A DNA stretch of 64,000 nt, from the sequence record PZ179883.1, one strand, 5' to 3'. Position 1 is the stretch's first letter. Each line of letters opens with the position of its first letter. A model generated the notes under the pieces. It saw only the letters and a program-made list of their open reading frames with translations, was not told the origin of the DNA and made no database searches. This document shows positions 14,180 through 19,684 of this stretch, one piece after another. Both the position numbers and the translations under genes were made by a program. The DNA comes from a phage.

Positions 14180-15598
14180 TTATGGATAGGTATAGATGAT
14201 ACCAGTTTCTAAAGCAGTTTTATGAATGATGTATCCATTACGCGATTCTTGAACATCAACTTCTGGATAGTCTTTCATCATCTTCTGAAGAGTGTAACGA
14301 TGCAGGTAGTATTTACTGTCTGGATCTTCAGTTTTCCAATCTTTACCTTCTTCAGTCATTTTTTGGATTTCATCCATAACCCACCAACCGCACCAGATAT
14401 AAGCTGAGCTACGATGTGGAAGAGGATGAACATAAGGTAATTCACCTTCTGGTTCCGGAGCAACTTTATCAGTCACTTGAACTTGACCTGTGGCTTTAAC
14501 TGTTTTACTATCATAGTCAGTTGCTGTAACGACAGCAGTAACTTCAATAGTTTGACTTCCAATAGATGAGGTATCAACAGTATATACGTTAGTTGACCCT
14601 TCTACAGGAGAAGAATCTTTCTTCCATGAGTAAGTAATTTGTGCTGCTTCAGGTGCGCCAGTAACATTAGCAGTAAATGTAGCCGAAGCATCTTGCTGAA
14701 CATTAATAGAAGGAGGAGTCAATGTAACCTGTGGATTCATTGTCTTCTTATTAACCGTTAATGATACTTCATTAGAAGTAACTGTTTTTGCGTCGTAATC
14801 CGTTGCTGTTACTTGGGCTATACATTTAATTTTTTTAACTCCAGCCACAGTTGGAGTATAGTTAAATGTAGAGTTAGTTTCTCCACCGACTTGTGAATCA
14901 TCTACATACCACTGATACGTAGCAGACGCTCCATCAGGTTGAGAAGCTAATGCAGCAGTAAATTGAACCGGGTTTCCAATTACTCCAGCAGCAGGACTAG
15001 CAGGAGTTACTGCCAAGGTAGTTGTCTGCGTCTTTTTATTAACCGTTAATGATACTTCATTAGAAGTAACTTCCTTTGCATCATAATCTGTCGCGGTTAC
15101 TTGAGCTACACACTTAATTGTTTTAACTCCGCTTGTGGAAGGAGTGTAATTGAATGTAGCAGAAGTTGCTTCGCTCACAGGAGAACCGTCAACGTACCAT
15201 TGATACGTAGCAGATGCACCTGGTGGCTGTGAAGCTAAGGCAGCGGTAAATTCAATTGGAGTTCCAATCACTCCAGCATCAGGGCTACCAGGAGTTACAG
15301 CTAAGGTAGTTGTCTGTGTCTTATTTTGAACTGTGATAGTTGTACTAATTTCAGCTGTTTCAGCATCAGTATCTGGAACTGTGTTTGTTGCAACTACTTT
15401 AATAGTCTTTTGACCGGCAGGTCCTTTTAGTACATAACTAAAAGTTGCTTCAGCTCCATCTTGTGGAACATCATCTACAGTCCAAGCATAGGTAATAGTT
15501 CCACCTCCAGTTTCACCACTGGGTGTAGCAGTAAACTGCTGAGTCTGATCTATAACTCCAGTAGGTGTTTTAGGAGTTATATCAACTGTAAAAGCCAT
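14180..15598 (-). CDS. hoc: Hoc outer capsid decoration protein with an extra Ig-like domain
   Basis: 472 aa against 376 aa recalled for T4 Hoc; N- and C-termini match T4; internal 96-aa domain present twice in tandem. Confidence 0.93.
   Translation of the reverse strand: MAFTVDITPKTPTGVIDQTQQFTATPSGETGGGTITYAWTVDDVPQDGAEATFSYVLKGPAGQKTIKVVATNTVPDTDAETAEISTTITVQNKTQTTTLAVTPGSPDAGVIGTPIEFTAALASQPPGASATYQWYVDGSPVSEATSATFNYTPSTSGVKTIKCVAQVTATDYDAKEVTSNEVSLTVNKKTQTTTLAVTPASPAAGVIGNPVQFTAALASQPDGASATYQWYVDDSQVGGETNSTFNYTPTVAGVKKIKCIAQVTATDYDAKTVTSNEVSLTVNKKTMNPQVTLTPPSINVQQDASATFTANVTGAPEAAQITYSWKKDSSPVEGSTNVYTVDTSSIGSQTIEVTAVVTATDYDSKTVKATGQVQVTDKVAPEPEGELPYVHPLPHRSSAYIWCGWWVMDEIQKMTEEGKDWKTEDPDSKYYLHRYTLQKMMKDYPEVDVQESRNGYIIHKTALETGIIYTYP
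14747..15322 (-). repeat. tandem direct repeat, 2 x 288 bp, inside hoc
   Basis: Two consecutive highly similar 288-bp units encoding residues 93-188 and 189-284. Confidence 0.85.
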
Positions 15599-15607
15599 AA
15601 GTTATCC

Positions 15608-16288
15608 TTATTTTAATGTTACGAAAGAAGAATTGCGTGTTTCACGAATTAGAACTGATCCGTCACGATTAATGTAGTAAATTAAGCTAAATAAAGTTTG
15701 GTGTGCCGACGCGTGTTCAAAACTAGTTGGGTGAGATTTCCAATCCGGAGTTTCAGCGATCCATTGATAAATCCACCAAGGAACCGTGCAAAATCCTGGA
15801 TTTTTTCCAATCAGCTGAAGATTCGGACTAAAGTTTTCCGGAAGAGTAAATACAGACGGCTTTTCAGATTCAATAATCTCAGCTACAGCCTGTTCGAATT
15901 TTTCTTCAACAAAAGGAGTATCTTCAATCAAAACATTGGTATTTTCAGGAATTTTATCCGTTTCTACTACTTCAATTTTAATGTCAGATTTAACCGGAGA
16001 ATCAATCAGAAGTGCTGCTTCTGGATTGACTTCTTCATCGTCATATTTTAACCCCTCTGCAGCATCAGCAGCATTGATTAAGTCTTTAATAGATAACCCA
16101 TCAGTCTCTGGCATAGGTTCACTAGCGAGCTTCTGGAGGGCTTCTTCAATATCAATAACGATATTATCAAAAGATTTATTCTTTTTGACCTTTATACCAA
16201 ACTGTTCAGCATATTCAGCTAATTTAGCCTTAGCTTCTTTATTATCATCAAGAGCCTTCAGCTCTGCAATATAATCTTTATCTATCAT
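15608..16288 (-). CDS. inh: inhibitor of prohead protease
   Basis: 226 aa, matches T4 Inh. Confidence 0.93.
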   Translation of the reverse strand: MIDKDYIAELKALDDNKEAKAKLAEYAEQFGIKVKKNKSFDNIVIDIEEALQKLASEPMPETDGLSIKDLINAADAAEGLKYDDEEVNPEAALLIDSPVKSDIKIEVVETDKIPENTNVLIEDTPFVEEKFEQAVAEIIESEKPSVFTLPENFSPNLQLIGKNPGFCTVPWWIYQWIAETPDWKSHPTSFEHASAHQTLFSLIYYINRDGSVLIRETRNSSFVTLK

Positions 16289-16301
16289 AATATTTCCTCA
16301 G

Positions 16302-16309
16302 TATAAATA
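16302..16309 (+). promoter_or_regulatory. late promoter TATAAATA upstream of uvsW
   Basis: Exact TATAAATA 29 nt upstream of ATG. Confidence 0.65.
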
Positions 16310-16338
16310 TAGATATATTTATTACATGGTATTTAGAC

Positions 16339-17850
16339 ATGACTGACATTAAAGTACATTTTTATGATTTTAGTCACGTGAGAATTGATTGTGAAGAAAG
16401 TACATTTCATGAACTCCGTGATTTCTTTAGCTTTGAAGCTGACGGGTATCGTTTTAATCCTCGCTTCAGATATGGCAACTGGGATGGACGAATCCGTCTT
16501 TTAGATTATAATCGCCTTCTTCCATTCGGCTTAGTCGGGCAAATTAAAAAGTTCTGTGATAATTTTGGCTATAAAGCCTGGATTGACCCACAAATTAACG
16601 AAAAAGAAGAATTATCAAGAAAAGATTTTGATGAATGGCTTTCTAAATTAGAAATCTATTCAGGAAATAAAAGAATTGAACCACACTGGTATCAAAAAGA
16701 TGCAGTGTTCGAAGGATTAGTTAATCGTCGTAGAATTCTTAATCTTCCAACATCCGCAGGTAAATCTTTAATTCAAGCTTTGCTTGCACGTTATTATTTG
16801 GAAAATTATGAAGGTAAAATTCTTATCATTGTTCCAACAACTGCTCTGACAACTCAGATGGCTGATGACTTTGTTGACTATCGTTTATTCAGTCATGCAA
16901 TGATAAAGAAAATCGGTGGTGGAGCATCAAAAGATGATAAATATAAAAATGATGCACCGGTAATTGTTGGTACATGGCAAACTGTAGTAAAACAACCAAA
17001 AGAATGGTTCTCACAGTTTGGAATGATGATGAATGATGAATGCCATCTTGCCACAGGAAAAAGTATTTCATCTATCATATCAGGTTTAAATAACTGCATG
17101 TTCAAATTTGGTCTATCGGGTTCATTGCGTGATGGCAAAGCTAATATCATGCAGTATGTTGGAATGTTTGGTGAAATATTTAAGCCAGTAACGACTTCTA
17201 AATTAATGGAAGATGGACAAGTAACTGAGTTAAAAATTAATAGTATTTTTCTTCGCTATCCTGATGAGTTCACTACTAAATTAAAGGGAAAAACTTACCA
17301 AGAAGAAATAAAAATTATTACTGGGCTCAGTAAAAGAAATAAATGGATCGCTAAATTAGCTATTAAACTTGCACAAAAAGATGAAAACGCTTTTGTCATG
17401 TTTAAACATGTATCACATGGTAAAGCTATTTTCGATTTAATTAAAAATGAATACGATAAAGTTTATTACGTATCAGGGGAAGTTGATACCGAAACCCGCA
17501 ATATAATGAAAACCTTAGCTGAAAATGGTAAAGGAATAATTATAGTAGCTAGTTATGGTGTATTTTCTACTGGTATTTCAGTTAAAAATCTGCATCACGT
17601 TGTTTTAGCGCACGGTGTTAAATCAAAAATCATTGTATTACAAACAATCGGTCGTGTATTACGTAAGCATGGTTCTAAAACAATCGCAACGGTCTGGGAC
17701 CTCATAGATGACGCGGGCGTAGTTTCTAAATCAAAAACATCTTCTAAAAAATACTCGCATTTAAACTATCTTTTAAAACATGGACTTGATCGTATTCAGC
17801 GTTATGCTGATGAGAAGTTTAATTATGTGATGAAAGAGGTTAAACTTTGA
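16339..17850 (+). CDS. uvsW: UvsW DNA/RNA helicase
   Basis: 503 aa; helicase motifs (GKS Walker A, DECH); matches T4 UvsW. Confidence 0.96.
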   Translation: MTDIKVHFYDFSHVRIDCEESTFHELRDFFSFEADGYRFNPRFRYGNWDGRIRLLDYNRLLPFGLVGQIKKFCDNFGYKAWIDPQINEKEELSRKDFDEWLSKLEIYSGNKRIEPHWYQKDAVFEGLVNRRRILNLPTSAGKSLIQALLARYYLENYEGKILIIVPTTALTTQMADDFVDYRLFSHAMIKKIGGGASKDDKYKNDAPVIVGTWQTVVKQPKEWFSQFGMMMNDECHLATGKSISSIISGLNNCMFKFGLSGSLRDGKANIMQYVGMFGEIFKPVTTSKLMEDGQVTELKINSIFLRYPDEFTTKLKGKTYQEEIKIITGLSKRNKWIAKLAIKLAQKDENAFVMFKHVSHGKAIFDLIKNEYDKVYYVSGEVDTETRNIMKTLAENGKGIIIVASYGVFSTGISVKNLHHVVLAHGVKSKIIVLQTIGRVLRKHGSKTIATVWDLIDDAGVVSKSKTSSKKYSHLNYLLKHGLDRIQRYADEKFNYVMKEVKL

Positions 17851-18539
17851 ATTATAAATTAATATACGATAATTTAATTAATAGAGCCCAGAATCGGGCT
17901 CGCCTTAATGGATACACTGAAACTCATCATATAATTCCTAGATGTATGGGCGGTACAGATGATAAGTGTAATTTGGTAGAACTAACAGCTGAAGAGCATT
18001 TTATAGCTCATAAACTTTTAGCTAAAATTCATCCAAACCATTACGGTATAATTAAAGCCGTTATATGTATGGGGATGAATTCAAAGACTCATGAAAGACA
18101 CGTTAATAAATCTTACGCCTGGGAACGTCGTAAAATGGCAGAACTTCAATCAGGTGAAGGTAATCCATTTTACGGAAAACACCATACGGAAGAACATAAA
18201 CAATATATGTCAAAACTCATGAAAAATCGTCCAATTACGTGGGGAAGTAAAATTAGTAAAACTAAAAGAATGAACCCAACAAAATGGACTGAAGAAGCTA
18301 AAAGATTGCATTCTATCAATCAATCAGGTAAAAATAATGGCATGTATGGAAGGAAACATTCCGCTAAATCTATTCAGAAAATTAAAGATAACATGCCAGA
18401 TAATTCAGGAGCTAATAACCCAGCTGCTAAACCTATAGAAGTAAATGGTGTTAAGTATAAATGCATGAAAGATGCTTCTAAAGCTACTGGATTATCAATG
18501 TACAAACTAAGAATACTTAGAAAAACAGTTAATTTATAA
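17847..18539 (+). CDS. HNH homing endonuclease with NUMOD-like repeats and C-terminal helix-turn-helix
   Basis: TTG start overlapping the uvsW TGA (TTGA) with AAGAGG RBS 7 nt upstream; ETHHIIPR...GG...N...EEHFIAH HNH motif; three GxxNPxxGKxHxxxxK-type repeats; C-terminal HTH-like segment. Confidence 0.8.
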   Translation: MNYKLIYDNLINRAQNRARLNGYTETHHIIPRCMGGTDDKCNLVELTAEEHFIAHKLLAKIHPNHYGIIKAVICMGMNSKTHERHVNKSYAWERRKMAELQSGEGNPFYGKHHTEEHKQYMSKLMKNRPITWGSKISKTKRMNPTKWTEEAKRLHSINQSGKNNGMYGRKHSAKSIQKIKDNMPDNSGANNPAAKPIEVNGVKYKCMKDASKATGLSMYKLRILRKTVNL

Positions 18540-18540
18540 G

Positions 18541-18552
18541 GGCTTCGGCCCT
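18541..18552 (+). terminator. GGGCUUCGGCCC hairpin after the HNH gene
   Basis: UUCG-loop hairpin followed by TTT. Confidence 0.4.
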
Positions 18553-18564
18553 TTGGAGAAAAAG

Positions 18565-18795
18565 ATGTTACTAGAATTTAAACAATTTCTTTATGAAGCT
18601 TCTATTGATGAATTTATGGGTAAAATTGCCTCTTGTCAAACATTAGAAGGTCTAGAAGAACTTGAAGCTTATTATAAGAAAAGAGTTAAAGAAACTGAAT
18701 TAAAAGATACTGATGACATCTCTGTGAGAGATGCTTTGGCAGGAAAAAGAGCTGAATTAGAAGATTCAGACGATGAAGTAGAAGAAAGCTTTTAA
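18565..18795 (+). CDS. uvsW.1: UvsW.1 small acidic protein
   Basis: 76 aa from MLLEFKQF after GGAG RBS; matches T4 UvsW.1. Confidence 0.85.
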   Translation: MLLEFKQFLYEASIDEFMGKIASCQTLEGLEELEAYYKKRVKETELKDTDDISVRDALAGKRAELEDSDDEVEESF

Positions 18796-18850
18796 ATTAA
18801 AAAAGGCCCAACCAAAAAGGAAGGGCCAAAACTATAGACTAAAGGTCACA

Positions 18851-19018
18851 CTATAGCAAAAGTTGCGTTTCATTTAATTGTTCTTCCGAACTTTCTGAAA
18901 CTGGTAGTTCTTTAATGTAATTATAGCAAGGCCCAGGATGTACAGGACCTTTGTCTGTTTCAACAACCAATGCAGAATCGATTGGAGTTTTACAGACAAC
19001 ACAAATCTTATCTGACAT
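18851..19018 (-). CDS. uvsY.-2: UvsY.-2 small cysteine-containing protein
   Basis: 55-aa ORF translated by hand (MSDKICVVCKTPIDS...), GAGGAG RBS; below the ORF-track size cutoff. Confidence 0.75.
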   Translation of the reverse strand: MSDKICVVCKTPIDSALVVETDKGPVHPGPCYNYIKELPVSESSEEQLNETQLLL

Positions 19019-19043
19019 GATTGTCTCCTCTAAATTATATATC

Positions 19044-19051
19044 TATTTATA
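19044..19051 (-). promoter_or_regulatory. late promoter TATAAATA (minus strand) upstream of uvsY.-2
   Basis: Exact TATAAATA on the minus strand. Confidence 0.55.
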
Positions 19052-19271
19052 TAACTCTCATATGCATATCAATGCCCATATCTTTAGAATAAAAATATTC
19101 ATCAAGATATCCAGCAAATTTTCCTTTAATATAAAGTACATCTTCACCGCATGGGTGGTCGGCCAGGATACGAATATCCTGACGCTTGAGATTATACTTT
19201 TTCATTAAGAATTGAATTTCCGTTTCAAATTCTTCTTCATAATTAAAAGCATCATCAATGCTATATTTCAT
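19047..19271 (-). CDS. uvsY.-1: UvsY.-1
   Basis: 74 aa, position conserved. Confidence 0.8.
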   Translation of the reverse strand: MKYSIDDAFNYEEEFETEIQFLMKKYNLKRQDIRILADHPCGEDVLYIKGKFAGYLDEYFYSKDMGIDMHMRVI

Positions 19272-19684
19272 TATTTTCCAGCCTCAAATGCTCGCATGTC
19301 TTGAATATGCTTAATAGCAAATCCACGTGATTTAATAGCATCAAGAGCTCCGCTACAGAAATCCAATAAAATTCCCCAATATTGCAATGAAGTATCAACT
19401 TTTAAAACATCCTTATCAGCTGATAGAACTGTCTTCATTTCTGATTTCTCATAACGGTCCATACTAAATTCATCACCATCTCCTCGTCCCGAGTAGTAGT
19501 CTAATTTAGCTTTAAGAGCAACTTTTTTCTGTGCTTCAATTCTAAGCATTTCCTTTTTAATACTTGAATGCTTATTAAGCCATTTACTATATAACATCAC
19601 ATTATTAGCTGCTTCATACTGTAATTTAGTCGAATCTATAAACACATCTTTCTTCAATTCTTCTTGAAGATCTTCTAATTTCAT
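19271..19684 (-). CDS. uvsY: UvsY recombination mediator
   Basis: 137 aa, matches T4 UvsY. Confidence 0.96.
   Translation of the reverse strand: MKLEDLQEELKKDVFIDSTKLQYEAANNVMLYSKWLNKHSSIKKEMLRIEAQKKVALKAKLDYYSGRGDGDEFSMDRYEKSEMKTVLSADKDVLKVDTSLQYWGILLDFCSGALDAIKSRGFAIKHIQDMRAFEAGK

Follow-up and report, generated by a model that had tools for sequence, protein, structure and literature searches.

A predicted free-standing Mob-type HNH homing endonuclease gene in the 3' end of uvsW of a T4-like phage

We analyzed a 64,000-nucleotide (nt) stretch of phage DNA (sequence record PZ179883.1; hereafter the window, to whose positions all coordinates refer) and studied an HNH endonuclease gene that lies between the helicase gene uvsW and its neighbor uvsW.1. 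The segment belongs to a Tequatrovirus (T4-like phage) and is 98-99% identical to W143, ZN18, T6 and PST over positions 17000-19300. On the plus strand, uvsW (16339-17850) encodes a superfamily 2 (SF2) helicase of 503 amino acids (aa; UvsW_N match 7e-43) and uvsW.1 (18565-18795) a 76-aa protein starting at ATG (Pfam UvsW-1, 1.5e-30). Between them, an open reading frame (ORF) of 230 codons with a TTG start (17847-18539, plus strand) was assigned to the HNH homing endonucleases by conserved residues, PHROG and homology to MobE. We consider it very likely that this is a functional, free-standing Mob-type homing endonuclease gene translated from the TTG, and predict that it is lodged in the 3' end of uvsW and is active now or was until recently.

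The encoded protein matches PHROG 655, 'homing endonuclease', at 1.6e-61. Its residues 1-106 show 52% identity to T4 MobE (E 5e-33), and the identity to MobC is 45% (E 2e-20). The nuclease domain of the HNH (beta-beta-alpha-metal) type (residues 1-75; 17847-18071, plus strand), defined by conserved residues and the homology to MobE, contains the His(-His)...Asn...His motif of the HNH superfamily with the catalytic-type residues H27, H28, N42, H51 and H55, and the motif region aligns with the HNH domains of McrA and group II intron maturases. In an alignment of 42 homologues, Y23, E25, H28, P31, C33, N42, H51 and H55 were invariant and H27 was conserved in at least 90%; all members begin with MNY.. 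at the column of the TTG. An AlphaFold model (predicted local distance difference test score, pLDDT, 84.8) places strands at residues 25-28 and 43-46 and a helix at 48-61, which as modeled is the beta-beta-alpha layout expected around an HNH motif; the putative nuclease function is assigned by sequence homology, not by a fold match. The protein is under strong purifying selection: the window and T6/PST copies differ by 19 synonymous and five non-synonymous changes, giving a ratio of non-synonymous to synonymous rates (dN/dS) of 0.06, and the same value was obtained between the endonucleases of the Gaprivervirus phages TH40 and SP18.

The rest of the protein resembles known DNA-binding modules. 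Pfam finds NUMOD3 at 51.8 bits (cut-off 20.4, E 7.7e-14) in two stretches on the plus strand, the first at residues 94-122 (18126-18212; ...SGEGNPFYGKHHTEEHK...) and the second at residues ~152-180 (18300-18386; ...SGKNNGMYGRKHSAKSI...). A preliminary description, made from the sequence alone, had counted three such repeats; the third, 'GANNPAAKP', turned out to be a fragment leading into the C-terminal helix-turn-helix (HTH). The HTH-like module itself was correctly recognized there: a strand-strand-helix-turn-helix unit at 18423-18530 (plus strand), it lies in the C-terminal third that matches the DNA-binding domain of I-TevI (1i3j) in phmmer (0.006), profile (6.3e-6) and Foldseek (probability 0.99) comparisons. 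The same description had likened the architecture to I-HmuI or the Mob proteins. The Mob-type assignment holds through the homology to MobE, while sequence and profile searches gave no match to I-HmuI (1u3e) at E <= 1. The domain evidence thus points to a Mob-type HNH domain joined to two NUMOD3 repeats and an I-TevI-like HTH, and we propose that the NUMOD3 minor-groove modules and the HTH would together read a long DNA site.

Alignment with insert-free relatives defined an insert of 689 nt (17836-18524, plus strand), with boundaries ambiguous by ~3 nt owing to a shared AAA and a length equal to 2 modulo 3. The ORF is interposed between uvsW and uvsW.1, as had been described, but the insert is not purely intergenic and begins inside uvsW, five codons before its stop. 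In the insert-free phages PD112, RB32 and NBG2, the two genes are adjacent with a spacer of 25 nt and the junction reads ...AAT TAC GTA ATG AAA ACA GTT AAT TTA TAA GGGCTTCGGCCC TTTGGAGAAAAAG ATG(uvsW.1). In the carriers (window, T6 and PST), the left junction reads ...AAT TAT GTG ATG AAA GAG GTT AAA CTT TGA ATT ATA and the right one CTT AGA AAA ACA GTT AAT TTA TAA GGGCTTCGGCCC, the latter being identical to the insert-free junctions. The first 15 nt of the insert are a re-coded uvsW tail, turning KTVNL* into KEVKL*, such that the last four codons and the stop of uvsW (EVKL*) belong to the insert; the changes from TTA TAA to CTT TGA create the overlap between the TTG and the TGA. The original tail AAA ACA GTT AAT TTA TAA (KTVNL*; 18522-18539, plus strand) is still read in its original codon phase and now ends the HNH ORF as ...LRILRKTVNL*. 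Downstream of it, a GGGC-UUCG-GCCC tetraloop hairpin (GGGCTTCGGCCC; 18540-18551, plus strand) is native to the uvsW/uvsW.1 spacer and also present in insert-free phages. The hairpin, the ribosome-binding site of uvsW.1 (Shine-Dalgarno GGAG, 18555-18558, plus strand) and the uvsW.1 coding sequence are untouched by the insertion.

Comparison of this junction across T-even phages, as suggested in the preliminary description, revealed a presence/absence polymorphism exactly at this site. The insert was found in 49 of about 501 Tequatrovirus records (about 10%) and in about 9 of ~33 Gaprivervirus records. A further 23 records hold a copy of 60-80% identity, and the two of these copies that were examined (pzk-kv6-1 and Metamorpho, both Jiaodavirus) sit at the same junction. 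One exact site is thus polymorphic in Tequatrovirus and Gaprivervirus, with carriers in Jiaodavirus as well. In T6, PST, HY03 and others, near-identical copies bear the annotation 'homing endonuclease' or 'mobD'.

To the left of the insert, the carriers share a diverged block of uvsW. After removing the insert and aligning three carriers with four non-carriers, we found 30 fixed differences between the groups at positions -114 to -6 nt from the junction, corresponding to 25-32 differences per 100 nt. The right flank showed 0-2 differences per 100 nt, and the remaining uvsW, outside its segE-linked first ~150 nt, showed 0-8. The block (17721-17835, plus strand) is ~110 nt long and ~27% diverged, and it converts the UvsW segment GVKPKSxNxKKKYV, conserved in six other lineages, into GVVSKSKTSSKKYS. 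A 135-nt query against 50,697 records located the block, at >=95% identity, in 49 phage records, exactly as many as hold the insert; among all records searched, there was no match at 90-95% identity and no insert-free genome with the block. A one-sided diverged flank was seen independently in Gaprivervirus, where TH40 and SP18 were compared with the insert-free VR20: differences per 100 nt number 16-17 in the 180 nt to the left of the junction, 0-9 in the rest of uvsW and 1-4 on the right-hand side. Carriers therefore show a linked flank that differs from the insert-free, presumably sensitive allele, as expected for co-conversion or immunity around a homing endonuclease gene.

A one-sided linked block is the usual sequence signature of a free-standing homing endonuclease targeting the neighboring gene. 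The alleles compared here indicate a cassette made up of ~110 nt of diverged uvsW 3' sequence and the 689-nt insert. The source of the block was sought in other genera; the best match in any of them was about 79-85% identical, and no donor was identified above that level. The native uvsW tail of the metagenomic contig L099, ...AMKEVII* (L099 1439-1504), shares ATG AAA GAG GTT, and with it AAGAGG, with the ...VMKEVKL* of the window (17785-17850), and a lineage with such a KEV-type tail may have donated the Tequatrovirus cassette; the endonuclease of L099 is only about 56% identical to that of the window.

For MobE and MobA, single-strand nicking and over-inheritance in mixed infections have been reported (PMC2988022). 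By analogy with these and I-HmuI, we propose that in a mixed infection the enzyme would nick or cut the uvsW 3' region of an insert-free phage and that recombinational repair from the insert-bearing genome would copy the cassette in. We infer, with moderate confidence, that the target lies within the ~110-nt stretch of sensitive alleles equivalent to 17721-17835 in the window. The diverged block is probably a cleavage-resistant version of this target, which would protect the carrier from its own enzyme. In this case, the existing sequences provide a natural experiment, with hundreds of sensitive and resistant alleles, a sharply bounded resistance block of ~110 nt, and independent replicates in several genera that have enzyme variants of their own.

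Several observations weigh against an active homing endonuclease. The canonical HNH core of the preliminary description is borne out by the conserved residues and the MobE homology but not by the Pfam HNH profile (PF01844), which scores 16.8 bits and falls below its gathering score of 21.4 (E 0.0079), with the orthologues at 13.8-20.5 bits; the domain search as a whole backed the HNH/NUMOD assignment through PHROG 655 and NUMOD3. Instead of determining immunity, the diverged block could be donor DNA carried along as a passenger. A candidate single-nucleotide marker of the target was rejected: at a Lys codon 27 nt to the left of the junction, all six insert-free alleles, which represent four genera, have AAA and eight insert-bearing alleles, also representing four genera, have AAG, CGT or CAG, but the insert-bearing contigs L097-L099 have AAA as well. 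The divergence of the endonuclease together with its host lineage, described below, also fits a long-resident and rarely moving element. Finally, a search of full texts found no paper describing the element.

Full-length orthologues, 48-75% identical to each other, occupy the uvsW/uvsW.1 junction in at least seven lineages. We compared seven, consisting of four named genera, Tequatrovirus, Jiaodavirus (pzk-kv6-1 and Metamorpho), Gaprivervirus (TH40 and SP18) and Gualtarvirus (Morganella phage Rgz1), and the three metagenomic contigs L097, L098 and L099. Across them, the pairwise identity of the endonucleases tracks that of UvsW (Spearman 0.63), which suggests a long association with each lineage and not recent jumps between genera. 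A scan of IMG/VR yielded only two close copies, in the isolates ZN18 and G8, and distant paralogues at other sites.

The same correlation, expected under vertical descent, supports the alternative that the gene is a resident that is no longer mobile, spreads only by ordinary recombination and descent, and is either kept for a benefit to the phage, such as competitor exclusion or DNA processing, or has not yet decayed. Cleavage by the HNH protein is known only as a prediction by analogy, and the insert frequency of only about 10% in Tequatrovirus points in the same direction. Decay is argued against by the dN/dS of 0.06, and a resident gene sits poorly with the sharp presence/absence polymorphism in three genera. 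T6, PST and the window differ elsewhere in uvsW and in their segE content, placing the cassette on different genetic backgrounds. The one-sided diverged flank, the signature of target-site immunity and co-conversion, is found in 49 of 49 carriers, and so strict a linkage would not be the product of a passive gene. We consider a resident gene quite unlikely and retain the homing endonuclease as the best explanation of the locus.

The details of the junction vary among the lineages. In those whose uvsW and uvsW.1 natively overlap (as ATGA or TAATG), the stop of the endonuclease gene in turn overlaps the ATG of uvsW.1, and the element thus forms a link in a series of translationally coupled genes. 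In Gaprivervirus, the insert is flanked by a perfect 19-nt direct repeat, TAATTAAACAGGTGGAAAT, which contains the Shine-Dalgarno sequence used by uvsW.1 in insert-free phages, and UvsW and the endonuclease both end in IKQVEI*. Not every lineage has a duplicated uvsW tail: the duplication is clear in Tequatrovirus (KTVNL*) and Gaprivervirus (IKQVEI*), minimal in Jiaodavirus (NL*), and either missing or unclear in Rgz1 and L097-L099, whose ORFs terminate in ...KLRKL(L/R)* or similar. A broader hypothesis, which we regard as rather unlikely, is that the junction is an ancient, dedicated landing site with which one HNH lineage has co-evolved across many genera of the Straboviridae, becoming wired into the coupled gene chain. 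If so, the expression of uvsW.1 would depend on translation of the endonuclease in the phages with natively overlapping genes. In its bolder form, the universal separation of UvsW and UvsW.1 would have been created by an ancestral insertion of the element. A fused UvsW-UvsW.1 ancestor found no backing in that 0 of 75 UvsW.1 homologues were fused to a helicase, a weak negative given the limited reach of the word-seeded search.

The start of the gene is integrated into the end of uvsW. The final uvsW bases read ...ATG AAA GAG GTT AAA CTT TGA, and the TTG start (17847-17849) overlaps the TGA stop (17848-17850) as TTGA. A Shine-Dalgarno sequence AAGAGG (17834-17839, plus strand) precedes the TTG with a 7-nt spacer and arises from the change of ACA to GAG (Thr to Glu) in the uvsW tail. 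Both the overlapping start and the Shine-Dalgarno sequence within the end of uvsW had been read from the sequence beforehand, and the orthologues agree: they start with MNY.. at the same position, at ATG in Jiaodavirus, Gualtarvirus (Rgz1) and L098, at GTG in L097, and at TTG in the window, Gaprivervirus (TH40/SP18) and L099. In all seven lineages, the start codon overlaps the uvsW TGA (NTGA). Among these seven lineages, the three copies starting at TTG have a strong Shine-Dalgarno sequence, AAGAGG or AGGTGG, at 4-7 nt, while those starting at ATG or GTG have weak ones.

TTG is a weak start codon, and the RefSeq record of SP18 annotates the ORF from an internal ATG (199 aa; L012 2378-2977), which raises the alternative that the TTG is unused and a shorter, nuclease-inactive product is made. 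The sole downstream in-frame ATG in the window is codon 34 (M in ...PRCMGG), and initiation there would delete the His-His of the HNH motif. The 33 preceding codons carry half of the catalytic motif and are kept at the protein level in all orthologues, with the invariant Y23, E25, H28, P31 and C33 and the near-invariant H27 among them. Orthologues place ATG or GTG exactly where the TTG stands, and the TTG is accompanied by a strong Shine-Dalgarno sequence in every copy that uses it. We therefore regard an internal start as very improbable and take the ORF to be translated from the TTG.

The expression of the gene would depend on uvsW. The T4-type late promoter consensus TATAAATA at 16302-16309 (plus strand), 30 nt upstream of the uvsW ATG, is the only exact plus-strand match between 16289 and 18795, that is, from the inh-uvsW spacer to the end of uvsW.1. 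This promoter would drive both uvsW and the HNH ORF. With no other exact match in between, the ORF most likely lacks a promoter of its own and is carried on the late transcript of uvsW. Ribosomes ending uvsW at the TGA would re-start at the overlapping TTG, aided by the AAGAGG. Just past the TTG, TATAAATT at 17853-17860 is one mismatch from the consensus TATAAATA; it forms the N-Y-K codons of the ORF and is not conserved in other lineages, and the resemblance is therefore probably coincidental. We also considered whether the ribosome-binding site is masked by an RNA hairpin, as it is for mobE of Aeh1. The fold obtained for the window is a weak AU stem that leaves the Shine-Dalgarno sequence in the loop, and the consensus of the seven lineages reaches only -1.6 kcal/mol with no meaningful covariation; the hairpin was rejected. 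A different hairpin, GC-rich and perfect over 6-7 bp, GAGCCC AGAATC GGGCTC, is found at 17884-17901 (codons 13-18 of the ORF); it is terminator-like on the minus strand and shared by T6 and PST, but has no obvious counterpart in the orthologues of other genera.

The annotation of the locus is conflicting. The preliminary description gave uvsW and uvsW.1 as adjacent genes in T4, and they are indeed separate ORFs (PMC1524935), but the T4 RefSeq record (NC_000866.4, L002 4170-4200) reads ...TTAATAAGCTTCGGCCC, fusing the two into a single 587-aa uvsW. The fusion is a known sequencing error (PMC1524935; PMC6486255), with the GGGCTTCGGCCC hairpin misread and the fused gene retained in the record. 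In Klebsiella phage Metamorpho (L016 1699-4120), a helicase coding sequence is joined across the insert in the manner of an intron and the HNH gene is labeled 'GIY-YIG'; the label in G2540-3 and G28 is 'group I intron endonuclease', and in PST the two flanking genes go by uvsW-A and uvsW-B. We trace the conflicting labels (uvsW-A/uvsW-B, intron endonuclease, joined coding sequence and truncated ORFs) to the uncorrected T4 reference and missed TTG or GTG starts. In T6 (AP018814, L006), segE is labeled 'tail tape measure protein' and uvsY 'ribonucleotide reductase large subunit'.

These records amount to a claim that the endonuclease is encoded in an intron between the uvsW-A and uvsW-B exons of a single gene, which deserves almost no credence: the 587-aa T4 protein is an error and the ORFs are separate in T4 and five other genomes (PMC1524935), a stop, hairpin and ribosome-binding site lie between them in insert-free phages, 75 of the 75 UvsW.1 homologues found stand alone (52-96 aa), the insert opens with a ribosome-binding site and a start codon overlapping the uvsW stop, and Rfam group I and group II intron models gave no match in 17400-19000 even at E <= 10. 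As in free-standing Mob-type genes, the endonuclease has its own ORF in the orientation of its neighbors and is not encoded in an intron.

Among known systems, the closest is T4 MobE, a free-standing HNH endonuclease between nrdA and nrdB. In addition to the shared N-terminal HNH domain, both genes are free-standing, lack their own promoter and have the orientation of the flanking genes, and both have a target, here a predicted one, in a neighboring conserved gene of DNA metabolism (PMC2988022). MobE differs in its length of 141 aa, the lack of the NUMOD3 and I-TevI-like HTH modules, and its insertion site and target gene; its activity has been shown experimentally, whereas that of the HNH ORF is inferred from homology. 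The genes of Aeh1 MobE (nrdA) and T4 MobA (gene 39/60) similarly lie within, or between the pieces of, an essential or conserved replication gene whose function is kept. In those cases, the host gene is divided into two pieces that both function, whereas here only the last five uvsW codons are displaced and re-supplied by the cassette, and the split between uvsW and uvsW.1 pre-exists and is universal. I-TevI (1i3j/1t2t) shares the DNA-binding part, with residues ~150-228 of the HNH ORF matching a NUMOD3-type helix and HTH, but it is intron-encoded and combines a zinc finger with a catalytic domain of the GIY-YIG type. I-HmuI, the HNH nickase of SPO1, has a similar layout of N-terminal HNH, NUMOD-type modules and C-terminal HTH, by analogy with which the enzyme is presumably a nickase; it is encoded in a group I intron, unlike the HNH ORF.

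The review of T4 mobile elements lists no endonuclease at uvsW/uvsW.1 and describes uvsW as the target of SegE (PMC2988022). The element thus appears to be a new, uncharacterized Mob-type free-standing HNH homing endonuclease with a tidy and well-replicated anatomy. It is of an ordinary kind but an unusually clean example, a selfish gene placed in the last codons of uvsW with a re-coded copy of the tail. The free-standing HNH homing endonucleases of T-even phages are far less understood than the GIY-YIG Seg enzymes, in both their recognition and the route from nick to homing (PMC2988022). As the biology is of a known kind, the practical value of the locus lies mainly in annotation and as a test system.

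SegE of T4 is a GIY-YIG enzyme encoded between inh and uvsW that cuts uvsW, the same gene as proposed for the HNH ORF, and it likewise comes with divergence of the uvsW end next to it, where phages with and without segE show 28 differences over the first 100 nt; it differs in its nuclease family and in acting at the other end of uvsW. In the window, the spacer between inh and uvsW is 50 nt (16289-16338), and segE, present there in T4, PST, T6 and NBG2, is absent, confirming the empty site noted in the preliminary description. The first ~150 nt of uvsW (16339-16490) show 28 differences per 100 nt between segE carriers (T4, NBG2, PST and T6) and segE-free phages (window, PD112 and RB32), and the 5' end of uvsW in the window is of the segE-free, presumably SegE-sensitive type. 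T6 and PST carry both segE and the HNH gene and the window only the latter, such that the two elements assort independently. Thus, uvsW carries a nuclease-linked diverged block at each end and would be attacked at both by two unrelated nuclease families.

In the surrounding gene order, hoc (14180-15598) and inh (15608-16288), both on the minus strand, precede uvsW, and uvsY.-2, uvsY.-1 and uvsY follow 3' of uvsW.1, also on the minus strand, and are followed by genes 25, 26 and 51. In NBG2, SH7, HY03, SYGD1 and FL44, ~98 extra nt, absent from the window, are found between uvsY.-2 and uvsY.-1 (2695-2817 in NBG2, L008, equivalent to 19019-19046 in the window). The hoc gene encodes 472 aa in the window in comparison with 376 aa in the T4 RefSeq record, and a 288-nt unit present in 2.0 tandem copies of 78% identity (14742-15322, minus strand) corresponds to one extra immunoglobulin-like domain.

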